Shown here: piece by piece, positions 40,286 to 64,000 of the stretch
Position numbering within the stretch: the stretch's first letter is position 1
How the letters are laid out: each line of letters starts with the position of its first letter
Source: a bacterium
GTDB taxonomy: Bacteria > Patescibacteriota > Saccharimonadia > Saccharimonadales > SZUA-47
DNA length: 64,000 bases
Assembly (NCBI GenBank): GCA_030427445.1
Contig: JAUIBQ010000001.1
Coordinates: 25,782-89,781 of the forward strand
Direction of reading: 5' to 3'
Notes under the pieces: model-generated
What the model saw: the letters and a program-made list of their open reading frames with translations, nothing else
What the model was told of the DNA's origin: nothing
The model's database searches: none
Position numbers and translations under genes: made by a program

Positions 40286-40359
40286 TGGGAATTAGCCAAG
40301 TGGTAAGGCAGTGGGTTCTGGTCCCATGATCGGGGGTTCGAATCCCTCATTCCCAGCCA
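40286..40359 (+). tRNA. trnQ: tRNA-Gln (anticodon CTG), CCA encoded
   Basis: Acceptor TGGGAAT/ATTCCCA. Anticodon stem GTGGG/CCCAT with loop TT-CTG-GT. T arm GGGGG-TTCGAAT-CCCTC. Confidence 0.93.
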
Positions 40360-41407
40360 AGCAAAGAAGAGTCCTTTAGGGCTCTTTTTTGTTTGATTGA
40401 GTTTGGGATTCGCCCAGGGTTCGCCTCGCCGATTTTATCGGCCATCCCTCATTCCCAGCCAAAATTAAAAGTCCATGTTTACCATGGGCTTTTTGTTTTG
40501 ACTGCGACAGCAGTGAGGGTTCGAATCCCCGCGGGTGGTTCGTTTCGACAGCTGCAGCTGTCCATCTCTCATACCCAGCCAAATTAATTTGATCTGTTTT
40601 TCATCTATTGAACCAGTTTAGTTTTTAGCATAATTTGGTAATATTTTATTCATTTGTGAAATACTCTCTGATAATAAAGTTCGAATTCTATCGGTTGCTT
40701 TGACACTGCATAATACTAATGGTTTGAACAGGATTAAAAGTATGGTATAAAAACAACATGACAGATAGAAGAGCACCATACACTAAATTTGAGACCCATT
40801 CTTCATATGAGGTTAGGTTCACTTCACCTAGCGAAGACCTAGAGGAGTTGAGGCCAAAAACCAAAAGAATAAGAGATGCCAGAAGTGCGGTACGTGGTGT
40901 ATGCAGCGAAGCCGAAAGAAGGTTCGATAAGCTTCTTGAGAAGCGCGAGCCTAAATGTACGCGTATCGGTGGTTGCGTTTTGGAAGGCTGCGTCACTTTG
41001 AACCCTAATTTTTTACCAGACTTGCAAGGTGAACTTGATGTGCTCGCAGTTTGCGAGACAAGCGAGGAAGCTGGACTAGTAGGATGTGCACTTAGGAGTG
41101 AGGATCCTTCGGCATTCGCCAATGAGGTGATTGTTGTTCTAGAGCCTAGGACACCCCAAAGCGAATAGACTTTGTATATTTTCTTGAACACATAAGCGTA
41201 ATTTTCAGATCCAAAAGCTTTACTGTGCTTCGTACCTATTTTTACATCATTTTCAGTTTCCTCCACTCCTATTAAAGTTCGATGATCATCCCTCATTCCC
41301 AGCCAAACTAACAACCGTCCTTCAGGGCGGTTTTTAGTTTGATTTAGAATGGGATTCACCCAGGGTTCGCCTCGCGAGCTTGCTCGCCATCCCTCATTAC
41401 CAGTCAA
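40344..41407 (+). repeat. array of five direct copies of the tRNA-Gln 3' end with tRNA-derived units and hairpin terminators
   Basis: CCCTCATTCCCAGCCAA occurs at 40344, 40446 and 41290. Copies with 2 mismatches occur at 40566 and 41391. Units 40393-40462 and 41338-41407 are ~85% alike by eye. Confidence 0.8.
40758..41168 (+). CDS. possible Cys-rich hypothetical protein (136 aa) inside the tRNA-Gln repeat array
   Basis: The ORF has plausible codon usage, but a 239-aa ORF overlaps it on the opposite strand. Neither has a motif. Confidence 0.3.
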   Translation: MTDRRAPYTKFETHSSYEVRFTSPSEDLEELRPKTKRIRDARSAVRGVCSEAERRFDKLLEKREPKCTRIGGCVLEGCVTLNPNFLPDLQGELDVLAVCETSEEAGLVGCALRSEDPSAFANEVIVVLEPRTPQSE

Positions 41408-53460: not shown

Positions 53461-53562
53461 AGATATTTATTTCGATGTCCTTTGTGCGACAAAGGACCAA
53501 AACATGGGGGTCCGGAGCATCTGTCTCTATAAAATTGTTGTTGAGAAGTACATGGCGACAAA

Positions 53563-53690
53563 AAGGCGTTTCACTTCCTCCTAGTTTTGCTCTTTAACAT
53601 GTATTTTCAACGAACAATTATTATCGGGTCAGATACTCTTTAAACCCCCATGCCCCAGGAAGTTGTGCAAATACATAATTTGCTATTTAA
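53563..53690 (+). repeat. partial family-B element (GGCGTTTCACTTCCTCC block and palindrome P1)
   Basis: GGCGTTTCACTTCCTCC recurs inverted at ~60705. GCAAATACATAATTTGC lies at 53667-53683. Confidence 0.65.
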
Positions 53691-53694
53691 TGAT

Positions 53695-53846
53695 GATCCT
53701 CAGAAGTTACTCTGAAGCTAAAACCTACTTTTCATCGGTATGAAGTCTTTATGCTGCAAAAACCACTCAAATATCAGGTATTAATAATTATCAAATATTT
53801 TCCAGTCAGCCTGGTAATTCTCACTGAACAAGGATAGTATGAAGCC
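53695..53846 (+). promoter_or_regulatory. island upstream module copy 1 (two hairpins plus TGGTAA-N17-TAGTAT promoter)
   Basis: CCTCAGAAGTTACTCTGAAG and TTCATCGGTATGAA hairpins. TGGTAA at 53812-53817, TAGTAT at 53835-53840, ATG 6 nt later. Confidence 0.55.
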
Positions 53847-54260: not shown

Positions 54261-54380
54261 AAAAGGCCTTCCGCTGTGTAGTTCAAAGACTACTGCCGAA
54301 GGTCTTAAATTAAATATAGCATAAGCTATTAGTTTATGTCAATATTTTGTCAATAGTTTATTTAATTGCCTTACTGCGGC

Positions 54381-54524
54381 TGGTCCTCAGAAATTATCCT
54401 GAAGCTATATCTTACTTTTCATCGGTATGAAGTCTTTATGATGATGAAACTCCAGTGTCAGTTATTAAATATCAAATATCTACCAACCTGGTAATTCTCG
54501 CTTTTAAGGGGTAGTATGTAAGCA
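54381..54524 (+). promoter_or_regulatory. island upstream module copy 2
   Basis: Same two hairpins. TGGTAA at 54489-54494, TAGTAT at 54512-54517, ATG 7 nt later. Confidence 0.55.
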
Positions 54525-55528: not shown

Positions 55529-55541
55529 AACTTCAATCAGA

Positions 55542-55590
55542 ACTTCACGCCGTTTGATATTATAACTCTTTAGGTTTTCACTTCATTTTA
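55542..55590 (+). repeat. Rep-A copy
   Basis: ACTTCACGCCGTTTGATATTATAACTCTTTAGGTTTTCACTTCATTTTA. Confidence 0.8.
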
Positions 55591-55599
55591 TTTTATAGT

Positions 55600-55892
55600 G
55601 CGTTTCTGCGGGTGGCTTCGCCCCGCACCCATGACTTACTTTTACCTACAGGTGCAAAAGTAAGCAAAAACCCCGCACCCAGTCATAAAAACACTATTGA
55701 GATAATAACCAAATACTACCGTGCCTTGCGGAACGCAAGCGGTCCAGAAAGTTTCTTTAGCTGATGTTTCTGGACTGGTCCTCGGCAATGACTCGCTAGT
55801 ATTTACTCACTTCCTCATCGGTTTTTATGAAGGGTAATTAAATACAAACCCGGACTGCAGGAATCTGTGCAAATACATAATTTGCTATTTTA
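55600..55892 (+). repeat. family-B element, full copy B1 (GC-rich hairpin core, degenerate module motif, palindrome P2)
   Basis: Core TGCGGGTGGCTTCGCCCCGCACCCATGACTTACTTTTACCTACAGGTGCAAAAGTAAGCAAAAACCCCGCACCC. Hairpin CTTGCG-GAA-CGCAAG. GCAAATACATAATTTGC at 55869-55885. Confidence 0.75.
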
Positions 55893-55895
55893 TGA

Positions 55896-56147
55896 TGGAC
55901 CTCAGAAATTATTCTGAAGCTAAAAACTTACTTTTCATCGGTATGAAGTCTTTATGCTGGTAATGCTAATCAAATATCAAGTATCACCACGGGTGATGTT
56001 GTCGATGACGACAACTTGCTCGTCGACTTCTTCTTCAGTCCGCGGATCCGACTTCTTAGATCCAAATAGCCAAGAAAATAATCCCATACCCCAATTATAA
56101 TCCCAAACAGAGTGGAAAAATATCCCGAACAGGGGTAGTATTAATTT
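55896..56147 (+). promoter_or_regulatory. island upstream module copy 3 (with a ~120-bp insertion)
   Basis: Same two hairpins at 55896-55958. TGGAAA at 56113-56118, TAGTAT at 56136-56141, ATG 6 nt later. Confidence 0.55.
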
Positions 56148-56792
56148 ATGAAAATGTCAGATAGACGTAAAGACCTCAGGCCAAGAGAAAAACTACAGGC
56201 TAAAGGGGTACGAAGTTTATCAGACTATGAACTCTTAATGGCCGTGATTGGAAGCGGAACACAATATGCGGATGTGTCGAAACTTGCACGAGACACTCAA
56301 AAACTTATCAAAGAAAAAGGCAGTAACCTTTCATATGAAGACTTACTAACCATTTCGAGCTTAGGCCCAGCAAAAGCATCAACCATAATGGCAGGATTTG
56401 AACTATGGCGCAGACAGTTTGAAGTAACGGAGCGACCAATTATTGACACACCGGAAAAAGCCGTCGAACAACTTACAGATATTCGTGACAAAAAACAAGA
56501 ATACTTCGTGTGTCTAACGCTTGATGGTGCAAATCGCCTAATCGCTAAGCGCATTATCACGATAGGTACGCTCACTGCTAGCCTTGTCCATCCTCGTGAA
56601 GTTTTCGCAGAAGCAATAACTGATCGAGCAGCAAGCATCATCGTTGCCCATAATCATCCCAGCGGCAATTTAAATCCATCATATGATGATATAGAGATAA
56701 CGAAACAGTTATCTCATGCTGGAAAGATTTTAGACATCAGATTGAATAGCCATGTTATCGTTTCGAACAATAAGTGGAGTGAGTTTGTTTAA
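56148..56792 (+). CDS. radC: RadC-like JAB/MPN domain protein
   Basis: N-terminal LSDYELLMAVIGSGT. JAMM motif HNHPSGNLNPSYDDIEITKQL. Confidence 0.88.
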   Translation: MKMSDRRKDLRPREKLQAKGVRSLSDYELLMAVIGSGTQYADVSKLARDTQKLIKEKGSNLSYEDLLTISSLGPAKASTIMAGFELWRRQFEVTERPIIDTPEKAVEQLTDIRDKKQEYFVCLTLDGANRLIAKRIITIGTLTASLVHPREVFAEAITDRAASIIVAHNHPSGNLNPSYDDIEITKQLSHAGKILDIRLNSHVIVSNNKWSEFV

Positions 56793-56793
56793 A

Positions 56794-58179
56794 ATGCATG
56801 AAATATATTTAACAAAAGAAGAGGTTCTTAAAAAAGCTGAGACTGCTTTAAATAAATCACTTCGTGAAGTTATATCTAAAGAATCAACCAAATTAATTGA
56901 AGAACAGATTGGGTACTATGGATTAAGGCGTAAAGGTCTACTAGGCGATATTACTGAAAAATATTTTTTTAATATACACCCCGGTAATGTTAGTAACCCA
57001 GATTTCGCAGTTGCTGAAGTTGAACTAAAAACCACTCCGCTAAAAAAACATAAATCATTAAAGTATGTGTCTAAAGAACGTCTGGTTTTTTCGATGATAA
57101 ATTATGAAAAAATTATCGAAGAAACTTGGGAGAAGAGCTCTTTTTTAAATAAAAATAAATCCGTTCTATTGATGTTCTATCTGTGGCTGGACAACCAAAG
57201 TATATTAGACTACGAATTTAAGTTTATTCACCTACTCAACCTTTTAGAAAACATATCCAGCGAAGATGCGCTTCAAATCAAGAAAGACTGGGAATTTATT
57301 GTAAACAAAATTAGACGAGGTGAGGCTCATTTACTTTCTGAAGGTGACACGTATTACTTGGGTGCATGTACTAAGGCTACGAACAGTCGAGTCGTTAGAG
57401 AACAGCCAGCAAATTCGATTCCTGCCAAGCCAAGAGCATTTTCTTTCAAACAGCAATACATGAACTACATTGTCCAGTCCAGACTACTTAGTAAAAGCAC
57501 AGATAAAGATTCGATATTTGCTAACGCTCAACATAAAGCTACAATCGAGGAGACAATACACAAAAAATTTACTCCATTCTTAGGAAAAACAGATAATGAA
57601 ATACTAAGTTCATTAGAGTCAAAATTATTGAAAAAGTCTAAGAGTTATAAAAGGCTAATTGTTAACCAAATACTAGGTGTTACATCGAACAAGATAGAGG
57701 AATTTGAAAAAGCAAATATCACATTAAGAGTGCTAACTCTTGAACACACAGGAACATTGAAAGAGTCTATATCTTTTCCAGCGTTTGATTACAAAGATTT
57801 AATAACTCAGGTATGGTATGACGATAAGGATGAGATAATGTCTGATTTTCATTCACAATTAGAGACCAAGAAATTTTTGTTCGTAGTCTTCCAGAAGCAA
57901 AAAAACATGAAAGACATAACTTTAAAAAAGGTTGCTTTTTGGAATTTTCCCATGAATGACTTAAAAGAGGCAGAAAAAGTATGGAGAAAGACCATCGAAT
58001 GCATTAATGAAGGGGAATACGAAAGTTTACCTAAAATCAAAGATAGTAGAGTTGCACACGTTCGACCACATGCAAAAAATGCTCATGATACACTTGAAAC
58101 ACCACAAAAAACACAAGAAATTAAGCGTAGTTTCTGGTTGAATGCTAAATACATAGAAAATGTACTAAAAAATCTATAG
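56794..58179 (+). CDS. Sau3AI/MutH-family type II restriction endonuclease (GATC-type predicted)
   Basis: KGLLGDITEKYFF...NPDFAVAEVELKTTPLKK...SKERLVFSMINYEK is the MutH/Sau3AI catalytic D...E.K region. ~460-aa two-domain size. The ATG at 56794 lies 2 nt after the radC stop. Confidence 0.82.
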   Translation: MHEIYLTKEEVLKKAETALNKSLREVISKESTKLIEEQIGYYGLRRKGLLGDITEKYFFNIHPGNVSNPDFAVAEVELKTTPLKKHKSLKYVSKERLVFSMINYEKIIEETWEKSSFLNKNKSVLLMFYLWLDNQSILDYEFKFIHLLNLLENISSEDALQIKKDWEFIVNKIRRGEAHLLSEGDTYYLGACTKATNSRVVREQPANSIPAKPRAFSFKQQYMNYIVQSRLLSKSTDKDSIFANAQHKATIEETIHKKFTPFLGKTDNEILSSLESKLLKKSKSYKRLIVNQILGVTSNKIEEFEKANITLRVLTLEHTGTLKESISFPAFDYKDLITQVWYDDKDEIMSDFHSQLETKKFLFVVFQKQKNMKDITLKKVAFWNFPMNDLKEAEKVWRKTIECINEGEYESLPKIKDSRVAHVRPHAKNAHDTLETPQKTQEIKRSFWLNAKYIENVLKNL

Positions 58180-58221
58180 TGCGGCATTGATCGAAATAGT
58201 TTTATTTGTTAATATTAAATA

Positions 58222-59481
58222 ATGAAAAATATTAAAGTTGTTGAATTATTTGCAGGTGTAGGGGGATTTCGCTTAGGCTTAGACGCGGCAAGCAATTACA
58301 AGACACAATTCAAGACAGTTTGGGCTAGCCAGTGGGAGCCTTCTACAAAGAAACAAGACGCTGCTGATATTTATGCTGCAAGGTTTGGCAAAAAGGGTTT
58401 GAGCGCTGAAAACATAGAAGATGTGATTGAAAATAACTTCGAATCTATTCCGAATCACGATTTACTAGTTGGTGGTTTTCCATGCCAAGACTATTCTGTA
58501 GCGGCGACTCTAAAAAACTCAAAGGGTCTAATTGGCAAAAAGGGTGTCTTGTTCTGGTCAATTTACTCAATACTAAAGAAAAAAGGTGAAAAAGCACCTA
58601 AGTACCTATTCCTAGAAAATGTAGATAGACTCCTGAAATCTCCGGCCAAACAACGCGGCAAAGACTTCGCCGTAATGTTGGCAGCATTGTCTGATTTGGG
58701 ATATGCAATTGAGTGGCGTGTTATTAACGCGGCAGACTACGGGTTCCCGCAACGTCGAAGGAGGATTTTTATTCTTGGCTATAAAGTTGGCACAAAACTT
58801 TATAAGGAACTTTTGCAATCTTCACAGGACACCACCAACTGGATTACAAAGGATGGTGTCTTGGCGGACGCCTTCCCTATATCCAATGAGTTGAGTAGAG
58901 TGAATAAGTTCGATATTAAAGGTACTCCGAAAACCATAACTGAAGAATTCTCATCAAATTCTCCAAAGATTAGCCCATTTGAAAATTCGGGCATTATGGT
59001 TAGTCGTCATATCATTACCGCCAAATCGACACCTAACTATGAAGGTAACATTACTAAACTGCGTAGTGTGTTGATTAGAGAAAATCAAGTACCAGAAGAA
59101 TACTTCATCGATGAGGAGCAGGTAGAGAAGTGGAAATACCTTAAAGGCGCTAAAAGTGAGGAAAGAACTGCAGCCAGTGGTCACGTTTATCATTACTCAG
59201 AAGGTCCAATGACCTTCCCAGACAATCTCGACAAGCCATCAAGAACCATAATTACTGGGGAGGGTGGCGCAGGTCCTTCTAGATTTAAGCATGTCGTAAA
59301 GACTAAAAGTGGTAAATACAGAAGGCTAACACCTATCGAGCTAGAGAGACTGGATATGTTTCCAGACAATCATACTAAACTAGAAGGTGTATCTGATATT
59401 CGACGTGCATTTATCTGTGGCAATGCATTGGTAGTTGGTGCAATCACTAAAGTGGGTGAATCTTTAGTAAAAAAAATTTAG
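58222..59481 (+). CDS. dcm: DNA (cytosine-5)-methyltransferase
   Basis: Motif I ELFAGVGGF, motif IV GGFPCQDYS, motif VI ENV, motif VIII QRRRRIFI, motif X GNALVV. Confidence 0.92.
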   Translation: MKNIKVVELFAGVGGFRLGLDAASNYKTQFKTVWASQWEPSTKKQDAADIYAARFGKKGLSAENIEDVIENNFESIPNHDLLVGGFPCQDYSVAATLKNSKGLIGKKGVLFWSIYSILKKKGEKAPKYLFLENVDRLLKSPAKQRGKDFAVMLAALSDLGYAIEWRVINAADYGFPQRRRRIFILGYKVGTKLYKELLQSSQDTTNWITKDGVLADAFPISNELSRVNKFDIKGTPKTITEEFSSNSPKISPFENSGIMVSRHIITAKSTPNYEGNITKLRSVLIRENQVPEEYFIDEEQVEKWKYLKGAKSEERTAASGHVYHYSEGPMTFPDNLDKPSRTIITGEGGAGPSRFKHVVKTKSGKYRRLTPIELERLDMFPDNHTKLEGVSDIRRAFICGNALVVGAITKVGESLVKKI

Positions 59482-59715
59482 AACCTTTATCTAAAGAAGT
59501 TTTACGCCTTCAGTTTTAGGCAACTCTTCAATTATGAGTTCTTTTATTTCCTCTCTAGACATCGTATCAACCAGCTTCACACCAGCCACCATGTTTATTA
59601 TTTTGACAACTTTATATTTTAATTAATTATTATTTGGATATTTTCCGATTCTAGAAATCCTATCTCCGAAGTTCAACGACTTTATAAATACTTTCTTCGA
59701 GAAAGTATAAACAAT

Positions 59716-59887
59716 TATTAGCAAATAATGTATTTGCACAGATTCCTAGGGTCCTGGGATTAATTGAATCACCCTTCATAAAAACCCTAGTAGTAGACTC
59801 TGTCACTATAGGGCGTAACCGATGAGAGAGTGAGTAAATACTATCGAATCATCGCCGAGATAATCAAATAGCAAATTATGTATTTGA
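59716..59887 (-). repeat. family-B 3' module, inverted copy right of the R-M genes (palindromes P3, P4)
   Basis: The reverse complement matches 55783-55892, except for a ~33-bp insertion. GCAAATAATGTATTTGC at 59721-59737 and GCAAATTATGTATTTGA at 59871-59887. Confidence 0.75.
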
Positions 59888-59945
59888 ACGGTTTATCTTA
59901 TCTATTATTAAGACTCCACAAGCTACAGAGTGTTATTATTAATTC

Positions 59946-60596
59946 ATGCTAACGGCTTTTCTATTTGTTCTGTTGTTCTTTTTATTTATTGTTCTTTTAA
60001 TTGCCTCAACAGTATTACAGAGTAGATCATTCATAGGAAAAAGTGGCGAAAACTTCATAGCGCATAAACTACAAAGGCTCGATCAGTCAAAGTACAAGGT
60101 ACTTAATAATATTGTGCTTTCTTCTAATGGCAATACAGACACTACTCAGATAGACCATATCGTAGTTTCAGTTTACGGCATTTTTTGCATTGAAACTAAA
60201 ATGCATAAAGGTTGGATCTTTGGAAGTGTACATAAAAAATATTGGACACAAGTACTCTACAAAAAGAAATACAGATTGTATAACCCGTTGAGACAAAATT
60301 ATGCACACATAAAATCTTTAGAATTTCTGCTAGGAGAGAAAATTAAATCTCCTATAATTTCATTAGTCGCTTTCCCTAGGGCATCAAGACTTAAAATAGA
60401 TGACCTCAAATTGATATCTAATGGCCAGGGGACTATAGCGAATCTACTTAAATACCAGGATGTTATTTATGATCAGACAGAAATCCAAACAATATACGAA
60501 GTGATAAAAAACTCTTCTATCAAAGATAAAGAAATAGATGCGGAGCACATAAGACAGATAAGAAACATTACTAATCTTTCATCAAATAATAACTAA
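59946..60596 (+). CDS. NERD (nuclease-related domain) protein with N-terminal TM helix
   Basis: GKSGENFIAHKL...IDHIVVSVYGIFCIETKMHKGWIFG...KYWTQ is the NERD D/E-x-K pattern. Confidence 0.8.
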   Translation: MLTAFLFVLLFFLFIVLLIASTVLQSRSFIGKSGENFIAHKLQRLDQSKYKVLNNIVLSSNGNTDTTQIDHIVVSVYGIFCIETKMHKGWIFGSVHKKYWTQVLYKKKYRLYNPLRQNYAHIKSLEFLLGEKIKSPIISLVAFPRASRLKIDDLKLISNGQGTIANLLKYQDVIYDQTEIQTIYEVIKNSSIKDKEIDAEHIRQIRNITNLSSNNN

Positions 60597-60600
60597 AATA

Positions 60601-60935
60601 CACGACAGCAAATTATGTATTTGTACAGATTCCTCAGGGTCCGGGATATAAAAGATTTTGCTTTCGACGATATTCGTTCGTAAAAATCACAAGAATTGCA
60701 GCAGCTCTTGGAGGAAGTGAAACGCCTAGCGTAAGCCTTGTGTTGTTTTACAACGAATTCATAGCCAAGCAATAATCCCAATCCCGGTGGTTTGCTACTT
60801 TGACATGCAAAGTAGTTCAAAAAATATTATTAAAAATGATTTGTTTTTTGTACTATCTCAATAGTGTTTTTATGACCGGGTGCGGCTCTTTTGCTTACTT
60901 TTGCACCTGCAGCTAAAAGTACCGCTGGTCAAGGG
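60601..60935 (-). repeat. family-B fragments, inverted (palindrome P5, GGAGGAAGTGAAACGCC block, GC-rich core remnant)
   Basis: GCAAATTATGTATTTGT at 60608-60624. CTCAATAGTGTTTTTATGACCGGGTGCGG...CTTACTTTTGCACCTGCAGCTAAAAGTA at ~60858-60920 is the reverse complement of the B1 core. Confidence 0.7.
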
Positions 60936-61121
60936 TGAGAAATCCCAGCGATATTTCGCAAGGCAGTCAACACCTGAGAACTTGTTTCATAGCAGTTGTT
61001 GCGGGGTCGCGGAACGTGACGGCATTGCTCTTTATATAAAATAAATCTCGGCGCTTTGGTACTTTGGCGTACAAAGTAAGATTCAGTGTACAATAGTACT
61101 AATGCTAAACACCACACATAC

Positions 61122-62345
61122 ATGGCGAAGCTAAAACGAACAATCACTTGGAAGATGCTGACGCTGTACGGGCTCGGCAATATTTTGGGCGCTGGCATCT
61201 ACGTCCTCATCGGCGAAGTCGCACAAGAAGCAGGCGACGCGCTGTTATGGTCATTCGTAGGAGCGGGAATAGTCGCGAGCTTCACCGCCATCACGTACGG
61301 GGCACTATCAAGTGAATATCCTGTCAGTGCTGGCGCTGCCATCTACACCGAACGAGCCTTCAAATCAAAAAAATGGAGTACGATCATCGGCCTTGCGATG
61401 GCGTTAACGGCAATTGTATCTGCAAGCGCTCTACTAAACGGCTTCAATAACTATTTCCAGGAGCTGCTGAGCAACCTTGGCGTTACTGTGAGTATACCGT
61501 CACCAGTAGTCATATTGACTCTACTAGCTCTACTCGGTTGGCTCGCACTACGAGGCATTGGTGAATCTACAAAATTTGCAGTCATCCTAACGCTGCTTGA
61601 GACGGGCGGACTACTCATGATTATCGGAGCAGCCACGCTCTACGGTAATCCAGTCAGTGCGCTAGAGACATCAGTTTCATCGCTCGGGTCTGTAACACCG
61701 TTAGCCATAGTGCTCGGATCATTTGTGGCATTCTATGCATTCATCGGATTCGAAGACATGGTGAACGTCGCAGAAGAGGTAAAACAACCAAAGAAGCAGA
61801 TGAAACGAGGTATGTTATCAGCGCTCAGCATTGCTGTACTCCTCTATATAGCAACAGTCATCGCGTCACTCGCCATCTTGCCAAGCAGTGAACTGGCAGC
61901 GAGCAGTGCACCGCTCGCAGACGTATGGCAAGCGGCCACGAATAGCAGCCTCCCAATAATCACGATCATCGGCATCATTGCCATTACGAACGGAGCCTTA
62001 ATCGGTATTATTACTGCGTCACGAATCCTCTACGGACTCGCAAGGGAAGGGTGGATTACAAAGACATTCGCACAGATCTCTCCAAAAACAAATACACCAA
62101 CCTATGCGAGCTACACGATACTTGCGCTCATCGCCGTTGCTTCTGTAGCATTACCTCTCGGCACGCTGGCACAAATTACAAGCTTCATTCTGCTGCTTAT
62201 ATTCACCTTTGTTCAGATATCCGCTATCAAGCTCAAGCGGCAACACGGCTTACCGCAACTGAAGTACTACATTCCGATACTCGGCCTCATAGCCAACGTT
62301 GGCGTCATCGCTGTACAAATCCTCGCTTGGCTACACATCGTATAG
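61122..62345 (+). CDS. APC-superfamily amino acid permease
   Basis: MAKLKRTITWKMLTLYGLGNILGAGIYVLIGEVA start and about 11-12 TM helices. Visibly GC-richer than the neighbouring island genes. Confidence 0.85.
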   Translation: MAKLKRTITWKMLTLYGLGNILGAGIYVLIGEVAQEAGDALLWSFVGAGIVASFTAITYGALSSEYPVSAGAAIYTERAFKSKKWSTIIGLAMALTAIVSASALLNGFNNYFQELLSNLGVTVSIPSPVVILTLLALLGWLALRGIGESTKFAVILTLLETGGLLMIIGAATLYGNPVSALETSVSSLGSVTPLAIVLGSFVAFYAFIGFEDMVNVAEEVKQPKKQMKRGMLSALSIAVLLYIATVIASLAILPSSELAASSAPLADVWQAATNSSLPIITIIGIIAITNGALIGIITASRILYGLAREGWITKTFAQISPKTNTPTYASYTILALIAVASVALPLGTLAQITSFILLLIFTFVQISAIKLKRQHGLPQLKYYIPILGLIANVGVIAVQILAWLHIV

Positions 62346-62460
62346 CACAGCCCGGGGTCTGGGGCATACAAGCATTGATGCCGATTCTGGTGTTCTTTCT
62401 CCATCAGTTTGGATCCTGATTGGTGAGATTGGAAATCGGTAGATTTCCGAGAACATCCGC

Positions 62461-62757
62461 ATTTCCGGGGGTATGGGGTTAAGGTATTTTACTCATGCAA
62501 ATAATATTTGCGTTTATCTCGCTCTAGCAAAACGCTTGCAGTGTGATGCAGAAATGAGCGAATCATTGCTGAGGACCAGCCCAAAAAAAGTAACTAAAAT
62601 AGCTTTTTGGGCCGCCCCTTGCGGGCGTTCCGCAAGCACGTTCATTTCAAGCCATCGGTGCAAAGCTGTTTTGATAGTCGCGAGCGGGGGTTTTTGCTTA
62701 CTTTTGGACCTGCAGGTAAAAGTAAGTCATGGGTGCAGGGGCGAAGCCGCCCGCATC
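62461..62757 (-). repeat. family-B element, copy B2, inverted relative to B1 (palindrome P6)
   Basis: The reverse complement carries TGCGGGCGGCTTCGCCCCTGCACCCATGACTTACTTTTACCTGCAGGTCCAAAAGTAAGCAAAAACCCCCG, CTTGCGG-AACGC-CCGCAAG and CTGGTCCTCAGCAATGATTCGCT. GCAAATAATATTTGC at 62497-62511. Confidence 0.75.
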
Positions 62758-62764
62758 AATAAAT

Positions 62765-62812
62765 TAAATGGTGTGAAAATATAAGGAGTTAAAATATCAA
62801 ACGGCGTGAATA
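62765..62812 (-). repeat. Rep-A copy (inverted; right edge of island)
   Basis: AAATGGTGTGAAAATATAAGGAGTTAAAATATCAAACGGCGTGAATA. Confidence 0.8.
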
Positions 62813-62873: not shown

Positions 62874-62903
62874 TTGACACTGATACAATTTATCTGTTAT
62901 AAT
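62874..62903 (+). promoter_or_regulatory. consensus promoter for the 62915 ORF
   Basis: TTGACA, 18-nt spacer, TATAAT. The ATG lies 12 nt downstream. Confidence 0.6.
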
Positions 62904-62914
62904 AGCTTTTCGAT

Positions 62915-64000
62915 ATGAAATCCTATACTTACGACTTTGACACAGGAACCGTACCTGGACTAGAAGACAGAAAACATGAAGTAGATCTTCTAAATCTGGG
63001 CGATATAGATAACATGATTATCGAGAGTCTCGGTGCAGCAGCAGCTTATACCGATCGCAGTGATACTATTAGTGAGTGTTTAGAAGCGTCAGAAAGACTT
63101 TCTGGCTTACTATATGTTGTAGAAGAATTTGTAGACGAAGTAGACGATGGAATGGTAGAGCGAGTGGAGCCAGTCGCATCCTCGAGGGTTACAACTCATC
63201 GTAATATGCTAGGAACTCATAGCAAGATACTTTCCGGTTTAAATGGGGATAGAGACTGGTATTATATGGGGGATCAAGAGAATGTAAGGGAGCTTGCGGA
63301 ATCAACGATTACGCATGTTGATCCTACTAGCATAGTTTCGAGATCATGGGTTGATTTATTAGTGGGCTCAGAAGAACTCGATACACTTTTATCGACAACC
63401 TACTTCATGCACCATCTAGAAAAGATGAAGTGTAGTGCTAGAAGAATAAGTACATTGGTACCGGGTAAGTTTACTGATGTTCTCCAGTCTATCCATGACG
63501 AAGCACCTGTATTTAAAATGACAGCTACGGGCACTAGACCATTAGATCACGATGAAGTGTTAGGTTTACTGCATTTTAACGAAAGAGAGAGTTGGAAGGA
63601 CAGCGCAACTCAAGATAAAATTGCCGTGCATTCACGAAACCTTCTAAACTTAATTATCGAATTATCAGAAAATCCGGACAAAATATACACTGAAGGGCTG
63701 CATCACAGTAATCAACAACGAACAGAGCTGCTCGTGCATGGCTTCGTAGATGACACTATTGCTGAAAGACATAGCGAATACTTTACACCACTCTCAGGTG
63801 CAAAAAAAAGAAAGAAGCGACTTTCACAATATGCAAAACGTCAAAAAGAAATTGATGGATTGCTGCCATCTACAAAGCCAGAGAGAGTAGAAAAGATAAC
63901 CGTAGAAGAGCCAGAGCGACCCGATAGCGGTTCAGCAGAAAATGAAAATATTAGGGAAATCGAGTTAGTGTTTCCTTGGATTGGTGAAGATCCAAAGCCC
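62915..64000 (+). CDS. hypothetical protein, 3'-truncated by the window end (>=362 aa)
   Basis: Hand translation from ATG 62915 (MKSYTYDFDTGTVPGLEDRK...) runs to the last base without a stop. Absent from the ORF track, probably because it is open-ended. Confidence 0.6.
   Translation, partial: MKSYTYDFDTGTVPGLEDRKHEVDLLNLGDIDNMIIESLGAAAAYTDRSDTISECLEASERLSGLLYVVEEFVDEVDDGMVERVEPVASSRVTTHRNMLGTHSKILSGLNGDRDWYYMGDQENVRELAESTITHVDPTSIVSRSWVDLLVGSEELDTLLSTTYFMHHLEKMKCSARRISTLVPGKFTDVLQSIHDEAPVFKMTATGTRPLDHDEVLGLLHFNERESWKDSATQDKIAVHSRNLLNLIIELSENPDKIYTEGLHHSNQQRTELLVHGFVDDTIAERHSEYFTPLSGAKKRKKRLSQYAKRQKEIDGLLPSTKPERVEKITVEEPERPDSGSAENENIREIELVFPWIGEDPKP

Follow-up and report, generated by a model that had tools for sequence, protein, structure and literature searches.

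A 64,000-nucleotide stretch of DNA from a Saccharibacteria contig (JAUIBQ010000001.1; the whole stretch is called the window in the following) carries two inward-facing copies of one element, B1 (55607-55893, + strand) and B2 (62755-62496, - strand), which are 75-89% identical over their structured part. The element has a conserved, strand-specific RNA fold with a pseudoknot and a multistem junction, and it is multi-copy, recombining and mosaic. With a probability of about 0.6, B1 and B2 are convergent intact genes of an uncatalogued family of structured RNAs of approximately 250-290 nucleotides (nt), which would serve as the payload of a multi-copy element and promote recombination of the surrounding island; that they belong to a family of structured RNA genes is, as a part of this reading, very probable.

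The sequence-only reading from which the analysis started had described an inverted pair with a third fragment inside it, and both the arms and the inner remnant were recovered mechanically. In an inverted-repeat search of the window, 55621-55674 matched 62687-62740 (54 nt, 94%), 55544-55602 matched 62752-62810 (59 nt, 81%), 55739-55797 matched 62557-62615 (59 nt, 78%) and, for the remnant, 55637-55707 matched 60851-60921 (71 nt, 90%). When the two arms are aligned pairwise, 80% of the columns are identical, the identity being 82% in Rep-A (a short repeat found upstream of both copies), 89% in the 5′ hairpin and pseudoknot, 75% in the three-way-junction core and approximately 60% in two variable helix strands. 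The outermost 65 nt (55829-55893 versus 62526-62461) show 53% identity, compared with 57 ± 3% for shuffled sequence, and, therefore, the similarity of B1 and B2 ends approximately 65 nt inside the outer limits first given for the pair, whose inner similarity stands. Despite their unlike sequence, both tails contain a GCAAAU...AUUUGC hairpin. A profile built from 28 relatives (nhmmer) detects B1 (E=1e-55), B2 (E=2e-41) and, at 60940-60842, the remnant (E=4e-14) but gives no further match in the first 49 kb of the window, B-related sequence being confined to 53.4-62.8 kb.

The block of approximately 75 nt that had been singled out as the best conserved is an H-type pseudoknot. This consists of an 11-bp A/U-rich stem (S1), the apical loop of which pairs with 3-5 nt just past a 5-6-nt A-rich linker, so that the three bases after the loop's CAG are paired with the three bases after GCAAAA. 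In an ungapped 64-column alignment of 43 non-redundant cores from many taxa, 96.4% of the cells of the loop pairing are paired; pair 28-48 is CG in 23 cores, GC in 10, UA in 3 and GU in 1, and pair 29-47 is UA in 12, GC in 11, CG in 8, AU in 6 and UG in 1. The covariation score of the pseudoknot is 0.265 versus 0.069 in shuffles (0 of 500 as high), and controls in which the partner was slid reached at most 0.084. The covarying columns were unconstrained (free Ns) in the hairpin search pattern given below, and their signal is therefore no by-product of how the cores were ascertained. That pattern did fix the base of S1; S1 covaries, however, in copies found independently via a 3′ motif (CUUAC/GUAAG, CAUAC/GUAUG, CUUCC/GGAAG, GGUAC/GUACC and GCCCA/CGGGC), in which the loop pairing also grows to 4-5 bp (GUCAG/CUGAC, GGCAG/CUGCC and GCCA/UGGC). 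A covariance model of the domain, the E-values of which are rough, gives B1 65.7 bits on the + strand versus 16.4 on the - strand, B2 52.8 bits and the remnant (60933-60870) 45.1 bits, the opposite strands scoring at most 19. At several loci (L046:4080-4140, L076, L077, L108; also L081/L094/L113) short secondary insertions occur exactly in the A-rich linker, after ..AAGUAAGCA, which suggests either an insertion hotspot or a tolerated expansion.

The 3′ domain was analysed in a MAFFT alignment of 28 copies, for which the RNAalifold consensus contains 27 pairs, 17 of them with double changes. The GUKCC/GGMAR helix covaries (GC in 17 copies, UA in 10), GGR pairs with the YCC of the invariant GGUCCUC (AU in 17, GU in 11), and a G.U pair at the base of the covarying hairpin (206-248) is invariant in 28/28 sequences; the invariant G.U pair and the AU/GU alternation together fix the strand that folds. 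Numerous double changes are also found in the closing helix (RNAalifold pairs 169-177/267-276), which is 10-22 bp long and free to vary in sequence, with a mean length of 10.8 bp when each strand is given its own partner versus 6.3 bp with swapped partners. Invariant single-stranded or junction nucleotides (UGCGGRAC, GCAA, CUGGUCCUCRG and AUGAYUC) complete the domain. In a long-range helix, CAGCC, which follows the pseudoknot, is paired with GGCUG, which lies past the U-run; this helix occurs in the family as CAGCC/GGCUG, CAGCA/UGCUG, CCGGC/GCCGG, CAGGC/GCCUG and UCCGCCAA/UUGGCGGG, and its own partners outdo swapped ones (7/20000 permutations as good) in a test with a G-C filter, used because A and U runs confound the anchor-based version. 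In the 5′ hairpin, pairing is kept while the sequence changes among relatives (GGGCGAUGCCUGCCC, GUGGGC..GCCCAC, CAAGGGC..GUCCCUUG). This hairpin, the long-range helix and the ‘mini’ variants described below were aligned by eye. Of the helices of the family, all supported by covariation, the 5′ hairpin (judged by eye only) and the long-range helix have the least firm support.

Between B1 and B2 themselves, at least three helices differ by compensatory changes, namely hairpin P (UCCAGAAA/UUUCUGGA in B1, CCCAAAAA/UUUUUGGG in B2), the GUKCC/GGMAR helix (GUGCC/GGCAA versus GUGCU/AGCAA) and the long-range helix (CAGUC/GACUG versus CUCGC/GCGAG). The hairpins initially named, TGCGGG...CCCGCA and a long one, are present. 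A further hairpin, thought to preserve its structure while its sequence differs, is not the helix conserved by the family and is better taken as a variable insertion behind the conserved GCGGAAC, a stem capped by GCAA whose length differs among copies (cf. L126, L139 and L148) and which reads GCCC-GCAA-GGGC in B2 and only C-GCAA-G in B1. One of the possibilities offered at the outset, a non-coding RNA family of approximately 300 nt, is strongly supported by homologues elsewhere, at least six covarying helices, the pseudoknot and the strand-specific invariant G.U pair. The positions of the modules of B1, and of the other features of the window, are collected in table 1.

Table 1. Features of the element family and of associated repeats in the window.
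Feature	Position	Strand	Basis or remark
B1, intact structured-RNA gene	55607-55893	+	nhmmer; all family helices present; transcript limits predicted
-10-like TATAGT ahead of B1	55595-55600	+	sequence
5′ GC hairpin, UGCGGG...CCCGCA	55607-55627	+	by eye
H-type pseudoknot domain of B1	55635-55675	+	covariation, covariance model
S1 of B1 pseudoknot	55635-55645 with 55654-55664	+	
Loop pairing in B1	G55651-U55653 with A55670-C55672	+	A-rich linker 55665-55669
Long-range helix, 5′ strand CAGUC	55680-55684	+	encloses 3′ domain; pairs with 55853-55857
Hypervariable closing helix, 5′ strand	55699-55718	+	pairs with 55797-55816
Conserved three-way-junction core	55721-55796	+	GUGCC/GGCAA, UGCGGAAC, GCAA loop, invariant CUGGUCCUCGGCAAUGACUC
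Covarying hairpin inside junction core	55741-55776	+	
Closing helix, 3′ strand, then UCGGUUUUU	55797-55816	+	
Long-range helix, 3′ strand GACUG	55853-55857	+	permutation test, by eye
Hairpin GCAAAU-ACAUA-AUUUGC, then UAUUUUAU	55869-55893	+	terminator-like; putative terminator
B2, second intact gene, faces B1	62496-62755	-	nhmmer E=2e-41
Pseudoknot hairpin of B2	62697-62726	-	covariance model, 52.8 bits for 62736-62673
Pseudogene, 5′ half, pseudoknot domain to start of closing helix, B1-like	60842-60940	-	profile positions 12-110
Pseudogene, 3′ part, CUCGG..closing-helix 3′ strand..terminator module, B1-like	59704-59859	-	nhmmer E=4e-4
‘Mini’ variant, then 3′ fragment/leader upstream of 137-aa gene	53470-53763	+	by eye
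Second ‘mini’ variant, contains palindrome 60796-60814	60600-60822	-	covariance model only 6.7 bits
3′ fragment/leader upstream of MazG-like gene	54354-54450	+	nhmmer E=1e-3, alignment
3′ fragment of RNA as leader upstream of radC	55897-55966	+	starts at invariant GGUCCUC
Rep-A upstream of B1	55541-55592	+	82% identical to 62762-62812 copy
Rep-A upstream of B2	62762-62812	-	
Rep-A copies, each ~48 nt	17199, 39415, 42783, 49337, 50151, 53410, 54901, 55542, 62765		
Second TACTTTG-N5-CAAAGTA palindrome, directly upstream of permease gene	61060-61078	+	resembles pseudoknot S1

Relatives of the element were sought in genomes with the hairpin pattern TACTTTT-N5-CAG-N4-AAAAGTAAGCA, and in metagenomes with the invariant 3′ motif CTRGTCCTCRGMARTGAYTC. 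The former matched more than 116 loci, only three of which (L020, L022 and L084, all in metagenome-assembled genomes (MAGs) of Saccharibacteria) align with B1 over 170-200 nt, the others sharing with it only the 36-48-nt hairpin region; the latter gave 41 loci, 30 of them with full or truncated elements. Saccharibacterial copies at unrelated loci have in common the interval from the 5′ hairpin through the GGCUG tail and nothing outside it: they lack terminal repeats, and there is no target duplication around L123, L129, L133 and L152. The 5′ end of the element lies behind a -10-like box, TAnnnT, found 7-10 nt ahead of the 5′ hairpin in most copies, and the 3′ flank carries a semi-conserved GCUAC(A) motif; neither side has the look of a free guide segment. 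The modules of the RNA are mosaic and reshuffled among paralogues. At one orthologous locus the flanks are 93-99% identical and every RNA helix is different, the swapped allele matching a copy at another locus in another genome.

Clustering of open reading frames (ORFs) at the 116 loci and at about 40 loci revealed no conserved neighbour gene, only ABC transporters, response regulators, a HAD hydrolase, NrdR, PolA and the like. Among 42 copies there is often no following gene, or it runs on the other strand, and the ORFs downstream belong to clusters unrelated to one another. The copies of L020 and L129 adjoin tRNA genes, and the tRNA-Trp region of the window has a 79% match to L022. Convergent pairs of copies were seen at other loci as well (L022, L039, L071, L072, L089 and L116); with 7 convergent, 1 divergent and 10 tandem pairs, the excess of convergent ones is not significant and only suggestive. 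BLAST found no plasmid or phage match for B1, and viral contigs gave 0 matches with both patterns. Two metagenome contigs (L121:342-453, L154:566-677) have a LOOT RNA (Rfam RF03000, 74.5 bits), the only real Rfam match obtained, some 80 nt past the element and within the 5′ region of an ORF of 307 aa. Furthermore, in a Saccharibacteria MAG, a lone 439-aa reverse-transcriptase-like ORF with a YSDD motif (L084:408-1727, -) was found 2.4 kb from an RNA copy; it is neither adjacent to the RNA nor recurrent at other loci.

Outside Saccharibacteria the pseudoknot domain alone heads different, longer, ORF-less multi-copy elements, at loci that span Bacteroidota, Gammaproteobacteria, Firmicutes and others. 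Isolates with the domain are the Bacteroidota Daejeonella rubra, Carboxylicivirga and Labilibacter and the gammaproteobacterial Aliikangiella; the MAGs, whose taxon labels may be unreliable, are labelled Vibrio, Desulfuromonadales, Latescibacteria, Lachnospiraceae and Butyricicoccus. A miniature inverted-repeat transposable element (MITE) of 560-870 bp carries the domain in Sphingobacteriales (L006, L019, L021, L046, L080, L090, L104 and L107), with terminal inverted repeats CACTAGTGTCCGG.../...CCGGACAGCAATG, a 9-bp AT-rich target duplication in 7/8 copies and the pseudoknot domain 45-50 nt inside its left end. The interior of this MITE shows long-range complementarity suggestive of a large structured RNA. 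No transposase ORF adjoins any of the 116 loci, and no autonomous copy of the MITE was found among the loci examined, the terminal-repeat pattern occurring only at MITE left ends. A BLAST comparison of the gammaproteobacterial core with plasmids and Escherichia coli genomes gave chance matches only, and a Phocaeicola match was dismissed upon inspection. A group II intron was considered for the Daejeonella element on account of a domain-5-like GAGCC...GGUU and was rejected, as there is neither an Rfam intron match nor a proper domain-5 geometry.

In the window, the B-related sequences share a 9-kb island with a restriction-modification pair, RadC, NERD and the permease. The restriction-modification pair comprises a Sau3AI-like (MutH-domain) endonuclease and a Dcm methylase, and these two genes separate the + copies, which are all on the left, from the - copies, which are all on the right. 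In Pfam searches of 20 ORFs between 39 and 62 kb there was no transposase, integrase or reverse transcriptase and no RuvC, HNH, OrfB or Y1 transposase domain; nor is there a direct repeat (target duplication) outside 55541 and 62812. Several copies are decayed. The inner remnant is a 5′-half pseudogene with a broken S1 base, and the NERD gene separates it from a pseudogene of the 3′ part, which also appears as inverted repeats of 68 nt at 84% and 43 nt at 88%. Two ‘mini’ variants, 53470-53700 (+) and 60822-60600 (-), form a second, nested inverted pair: they have a pseudoknot-like hairpin with CAAAAC behind it, the closing helix and the terminator module and lack the three-way junction. In the former the hairpin is GUCCUUUGUGCGACAAAGGAC-CAAAAC and the GGCGUUUCACUUCCUCC and GUGCAAAUACAUAAUUUGC modules are present; in the latter the pseudoknot assignment is tentative. 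The GCAAAU terminator-like module recurs at 53665-53700, 59719-59744(-), 60607-60631(-) and 62496-62510(-).

Three 3′ fragments of the RNA start exactly at GGUCCUC and are found in the leaders of a 137-aa gene, a MazG-like gene and radC, the last of them (55897-55966) being 66-84% identical to 53694-53763, 54381-54450 and the 3′ end of the metagenome copy L124. These three unrelated genes share a leader of approximately 160 nt (53694-53846, 54381-54524 and 55897-56147), in which the RNA 3′ fragment, with two local hairpins, is joined to a conserved block (CAGCCTGGTAATTCTC...GGATAGTATG) extending as far as the start codon. The amino-acid permease gene (61086-62345) lies in a region with a GC fraction of 0.50, versus 0.36-0.39 in the surrounding island, as had been noticed from the sequence; this composition suggests that the gene may have been acquired separately and recently. 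Beyond the outer edge of B2 and divergent from it, there is a perfect sigma-70 promoter (62874-62903, +; TTGACA-18-TATAAT plus extended TG), with a gene starting near 62915.

Rep-A had been taken to form one unit with B. It is instead an independent 48-nt repeat with nine copies in the window, 7/9 of them without element B, and it is missing ahead of the relatives of B in most other genomes; it is a separate, genome-wide repeat unrelated to the RNA. It is built of two direct copies of AAAUGGCGUGAAAU flanking CCUAAGGAGUUAAAA, the direct copies of AAATGGCGTGAAAT being spaced 33 nt around CCTAAGGAGTTAAAA; the repeats are direct and not inverted, and there is no hairpin in Rep-A. In 5-6 of the 9 cases it starts 1-15 nt past the stop codon of a co-oriented gene, and a Rep-A-like TTTTTAACACCTTAGGAT is found just upstream of the tRNA in L020 and L129. 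A factor-dependent terminator, a protein-binding site and an uptake signal are possibilities for its role. The two TACTTTG-N5-CAAAGTA palindromes pointed out earlier (60796-60814 and 61060-61078) are real, with 2 observed versus 0.02 expected. Elsewhere in the window, the 3′ end of tRNA-Gln plus approximately 70 nt downstream (40286-40429) recurs 946 bp on (41288-41375; 88 nt, 85%), which is the signature of a small element integrated at a tRNA gene; no integrase was detected by Pfam within 39-49 kb, around this duplication.

Comparison with known families was made against Rfam 15 in several scopes: gathering thresholds were applied to the whole window, E<=5 to 49-64 kb and E<=10 to B1 alone, and 18 genome loci, 10 metagenome loci and the Daejeonella element were included; neither gathering nor permissive thresholds gave a match at the element. 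A RAGATH-12 match to B1 (12 bits, E<=10) lies on the wrong strand and is due to chance. Thus, a known Rfam or insertion-sequence (IS) family, or a lack of covariation, which the sequence-only reading had named as what would speak against it, was not what was found: neither Rfam nor IS families are matched, and covarying pairs are plentiful. No description of the RNA was met in the literature searched, which did not take in a possibly relevant preprint of 2026 that mines non-coding elements with a genome language model.

Among known systems, the closest analogues are the orphan HEARO/omega-type RNAs and the MITE/REPIN-type repeats. The HEARO/IscB omega-RNA and the orphan IS200/IS605 RNAs (IS605-orfB, RAGATH-18-derived) are likewise multi-copy, 200-300 nt long and pseudoknotted, with a conserved core, variable helices, often no adjacent ORF, a distribution over many phyla and a link to mobile DNA. 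Unlike them, the element is not matched by a HEARO, IS605-orfB or RAGATH model, with short inputs and a limit as loose as E<=10, has no IscB, TnpB or TnpA gene beside any of approximately 160 loci, shows no conserved flanking tetranucleotide, does not seem to have a guide-like variable single strand, and is preceded on its left by a -10-like box and not by a transposon end. MITE and REPIN repeats (Correia/CREE, RUP, ERIC, RPE, REPIN-RAYT) are also short, ORF-less, intergenic and often in inverted pairs, and the Sphingobacteriales carrier, with its terminal inverted repeats and 9-bp target duplication, is a MITE by definition; the copies of the window and of other Saccharibacteria, in contrast, lack both features, and their conservation tracks a complex RNA fold (pseudoknot, three-way junction, invariant G.U) instead of a simple DNA palindrome. 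With the preQ1-I, SAM-II and fluoride riboswitches the core shares its topology, i.e. a hairpin, an A-rich 3′ linker along the minor groove of the stem and a short loop helix, but the stem has 11 bp versus approximately 5 bp, the domain stands at the 5′ end of a much larger RNA, there is no consistent set of downstream genes and no Rfam riboswitch model matches. ROOL, GOLLD, OLE and raiA resemble it in that they fold ornately into many helices, with pseudoknots, multistem junctions and junction nucleotides that never vary, and in their occasional position beside tRNA genes; no match to them was seen in sequence or structure, and the present RNA is not found in viral contigs, is multi-copy with swapped alleles and has its pseudoknot domain on a DNA transposon elsewhere. 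tRNA and tmRNA genes that anchor islands are likewise structured RNA genes at the edge of accessory DNA with partial 3′ copies inside, but here the scanned ORFs include no integrase, insertion by an integrase would have left full copies and fragments in a different order, and the pattern of fragments is better explained by homologous recombination between paralogues. Other candidates were rejected: an IS110 bridge/seek RNA, as there is no adjacent recombinase and the variable segments are all base-paired helices and not open loops; an integron attC site, as core sites are absent from B and Rep-A, the Rep-A repeats are direct and the scanned ORFs include no integrase; and K-turn (C/D-box-like AUGA) and tmRNA-like readings, which were considered by eye and dropped. 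None of the testable defining features of these families was found in the window copies.

How such a family would work can be sketched as follows. Each copy would be transcribed from its own promoter, with a start at the 5′ hairpin and a 3′ end after the GCAAAU hairpin, and the RNA could serve as a trans-acting scaffold for a conserved protein or ligand partner encoded elsewhere; like the orphan HEARO/omega-type RNAs, it may be what a selfish or hitch-hiking element, present in many copies, carries as its functional payload. The copies repeated in this genome may mainly be substrates for homologous recombination; such recombination would explain how copies came to be split or truncated, how 3′ fragments became leaders of three genes and how the mirror-image +/- layout arose. 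The block between + and - copies (endonuclease, methylase, RadC, NERD and permease) may have been acquired horizontally. That the payload acts in trans is a tentative proposal. Several observations weigh against reading B1 and B2 as intact genes of this kind. The promoter, both ends of the transcript, the trans action and the partner are postulated, and a sigma-70 scan gave no good promoter upstream of B1 or B2. In B2 the top of S1 has two mismatches and an extra C in the linker shifts the register of the pseudoknot, so that its activity is uncertain and it may be impaired. In the MAFFT alignment the variable helices contain more A.C than G.U mismatches, which weakens the RNA-only argument there, although the excess probably reflects misalignment. 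Finally, B1 points toward radC, and three genes have leaders with the 3′ fragment of the RNA, which leaves room for a role in cis.

This last point is the starting point for one of the alternatives, namely that the element is a cis-acting 5′ leader, riboswitch-like or protein-controlled, in which the closing helix and U-run would form a terminator, the regulated unit of B1 being a radC-restriction-modification operon. B1 is indeed co-oriented with radC, 255 nt upstream of it, its closing helix is followed by UCGGUUUUU, and the pseudoknot resembles small aptamer pseudoknots, e.g. preQ1-I. Such a leader is nevertheless unlikely, because B2 converges on the permease gene and has no co-oriented gene downstream, the genes downstream of other copies, where there are any on the same strand, are functionally unrelated, and the long-range helix spans the U-run, so that the RNA continues past it; the alleles of the multi-copy RNA are, furthermore, swapped, and in other phyla its pseudoknot domain is borne by MITEs. 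The latter fact, together with the inward-facing arms around foreign-looking genes, the GC-richer permease and the recurrence of convergent pairs, can in turn be taken to mean that a composite or MITE-bounded transposon with a 6.5-kb cargo has B1 and B2, each with its Rep-A, as its terminal inverted repeats, the structures being transposase sites at the DNA level; MITE-like ends had been among the original suggestions. For this genome the suggestion does not hold up well, and the transposon is improbable: the outer edges of the pair lack a target duplication, its arms are only approximately 80% identical with unrelated outer 65 nt, Rep-A stands at seven sites without B, and no transposase or integrase is encoded by the scanned ORFs. 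Moreover, saccharibacterial copies elsewhere share the RNA only and end exactly with it, many are single and lie beside housekeeping genes, and the invariant G.U pair and strand-specific scores favour selection on one transcribed strand.

A site-specific recombinase acting on the arms, as crossover sites of an invertible segment or as an att site within an RNA gene whose displaced ends would be the 3′ fragments, would explain why these fragments all start at the most conserved stretch, GGUCCUC, and why the copies that are split or truncated are crowded together among accessory genes in one island, in a window that has an att-like duplication at tRNA-Gln; recombination sites had also been among the original suggestions. 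The case for it is poor, since the scanned ORFs include no integrase or invertase, a single larger unit, itself duplicated, accounts for two of the three fragment junctions, which are thus not independent events, and the fragment at 55897 directly follows intact B1 with no island between them, a geometry other than gene, island and 3′ fragment. That the pair is a functionless segmental duplication or inversion in decay, in which the hairpins would be incidental, could be suspected from the presence of just two full copies in 64 kb, the several dead fragments nearby and the moderate single-sequence folding z-scores (-2.6 and -3.8); it is contradicted by covariation and is most improbable, since approximately 30 independent contigs have the same architecture, every helix shows compensatory changes, the junction nucleotides are invariant and the pseudoknot domain is conserved across phyla.

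With B1 and B2 read as genes of a structured RNA family, the wider occurrence of the 5′ module invites a bolder proposal, which is speculative: the pseudoknot domain may define a phylum-spanning class of RNA-encoding selfish elements, present as MITEs in Bacteroidota and as free-standing RNA genes in Saccharibacteria, in which the payload would be a catalytic or partner-binding RNA and the 5′ pseudoknot the handle for a conserved factor of the host or of the element. If true, the class would be an undescribed ribozyme or an RNA-guided or RNA-scaffolded system with a partner encoded in trans. Widespread multi-helix pseudoknotted RNAs have usually proved to be ribozymes, riboswitch-like sensors or cores of RNA-protein machines, and HEARO was later recognised as the guide RNA of IscB. 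Here, a multi-helix fold occurs as multiple swapped alleles in the small genomes of Saccharibacteria, which are roughly 1 Mb in size, and its 5′ module also occurs in hundreds of repeats that lack an ORF, in Bacteroidota, Proteobacteria and Firmicutes, its carrier in Sphingobacteriales being a DNA transposon. If the RNA has a partner, it would represent a new RNA-based system with a comparative data set at hand; if it has none, it would still clearly exemplify how, in a bacterium of the candidate phyla radiation, a structured RNA gene family can serve as the scaffold on which a defence and accessory island recombines.

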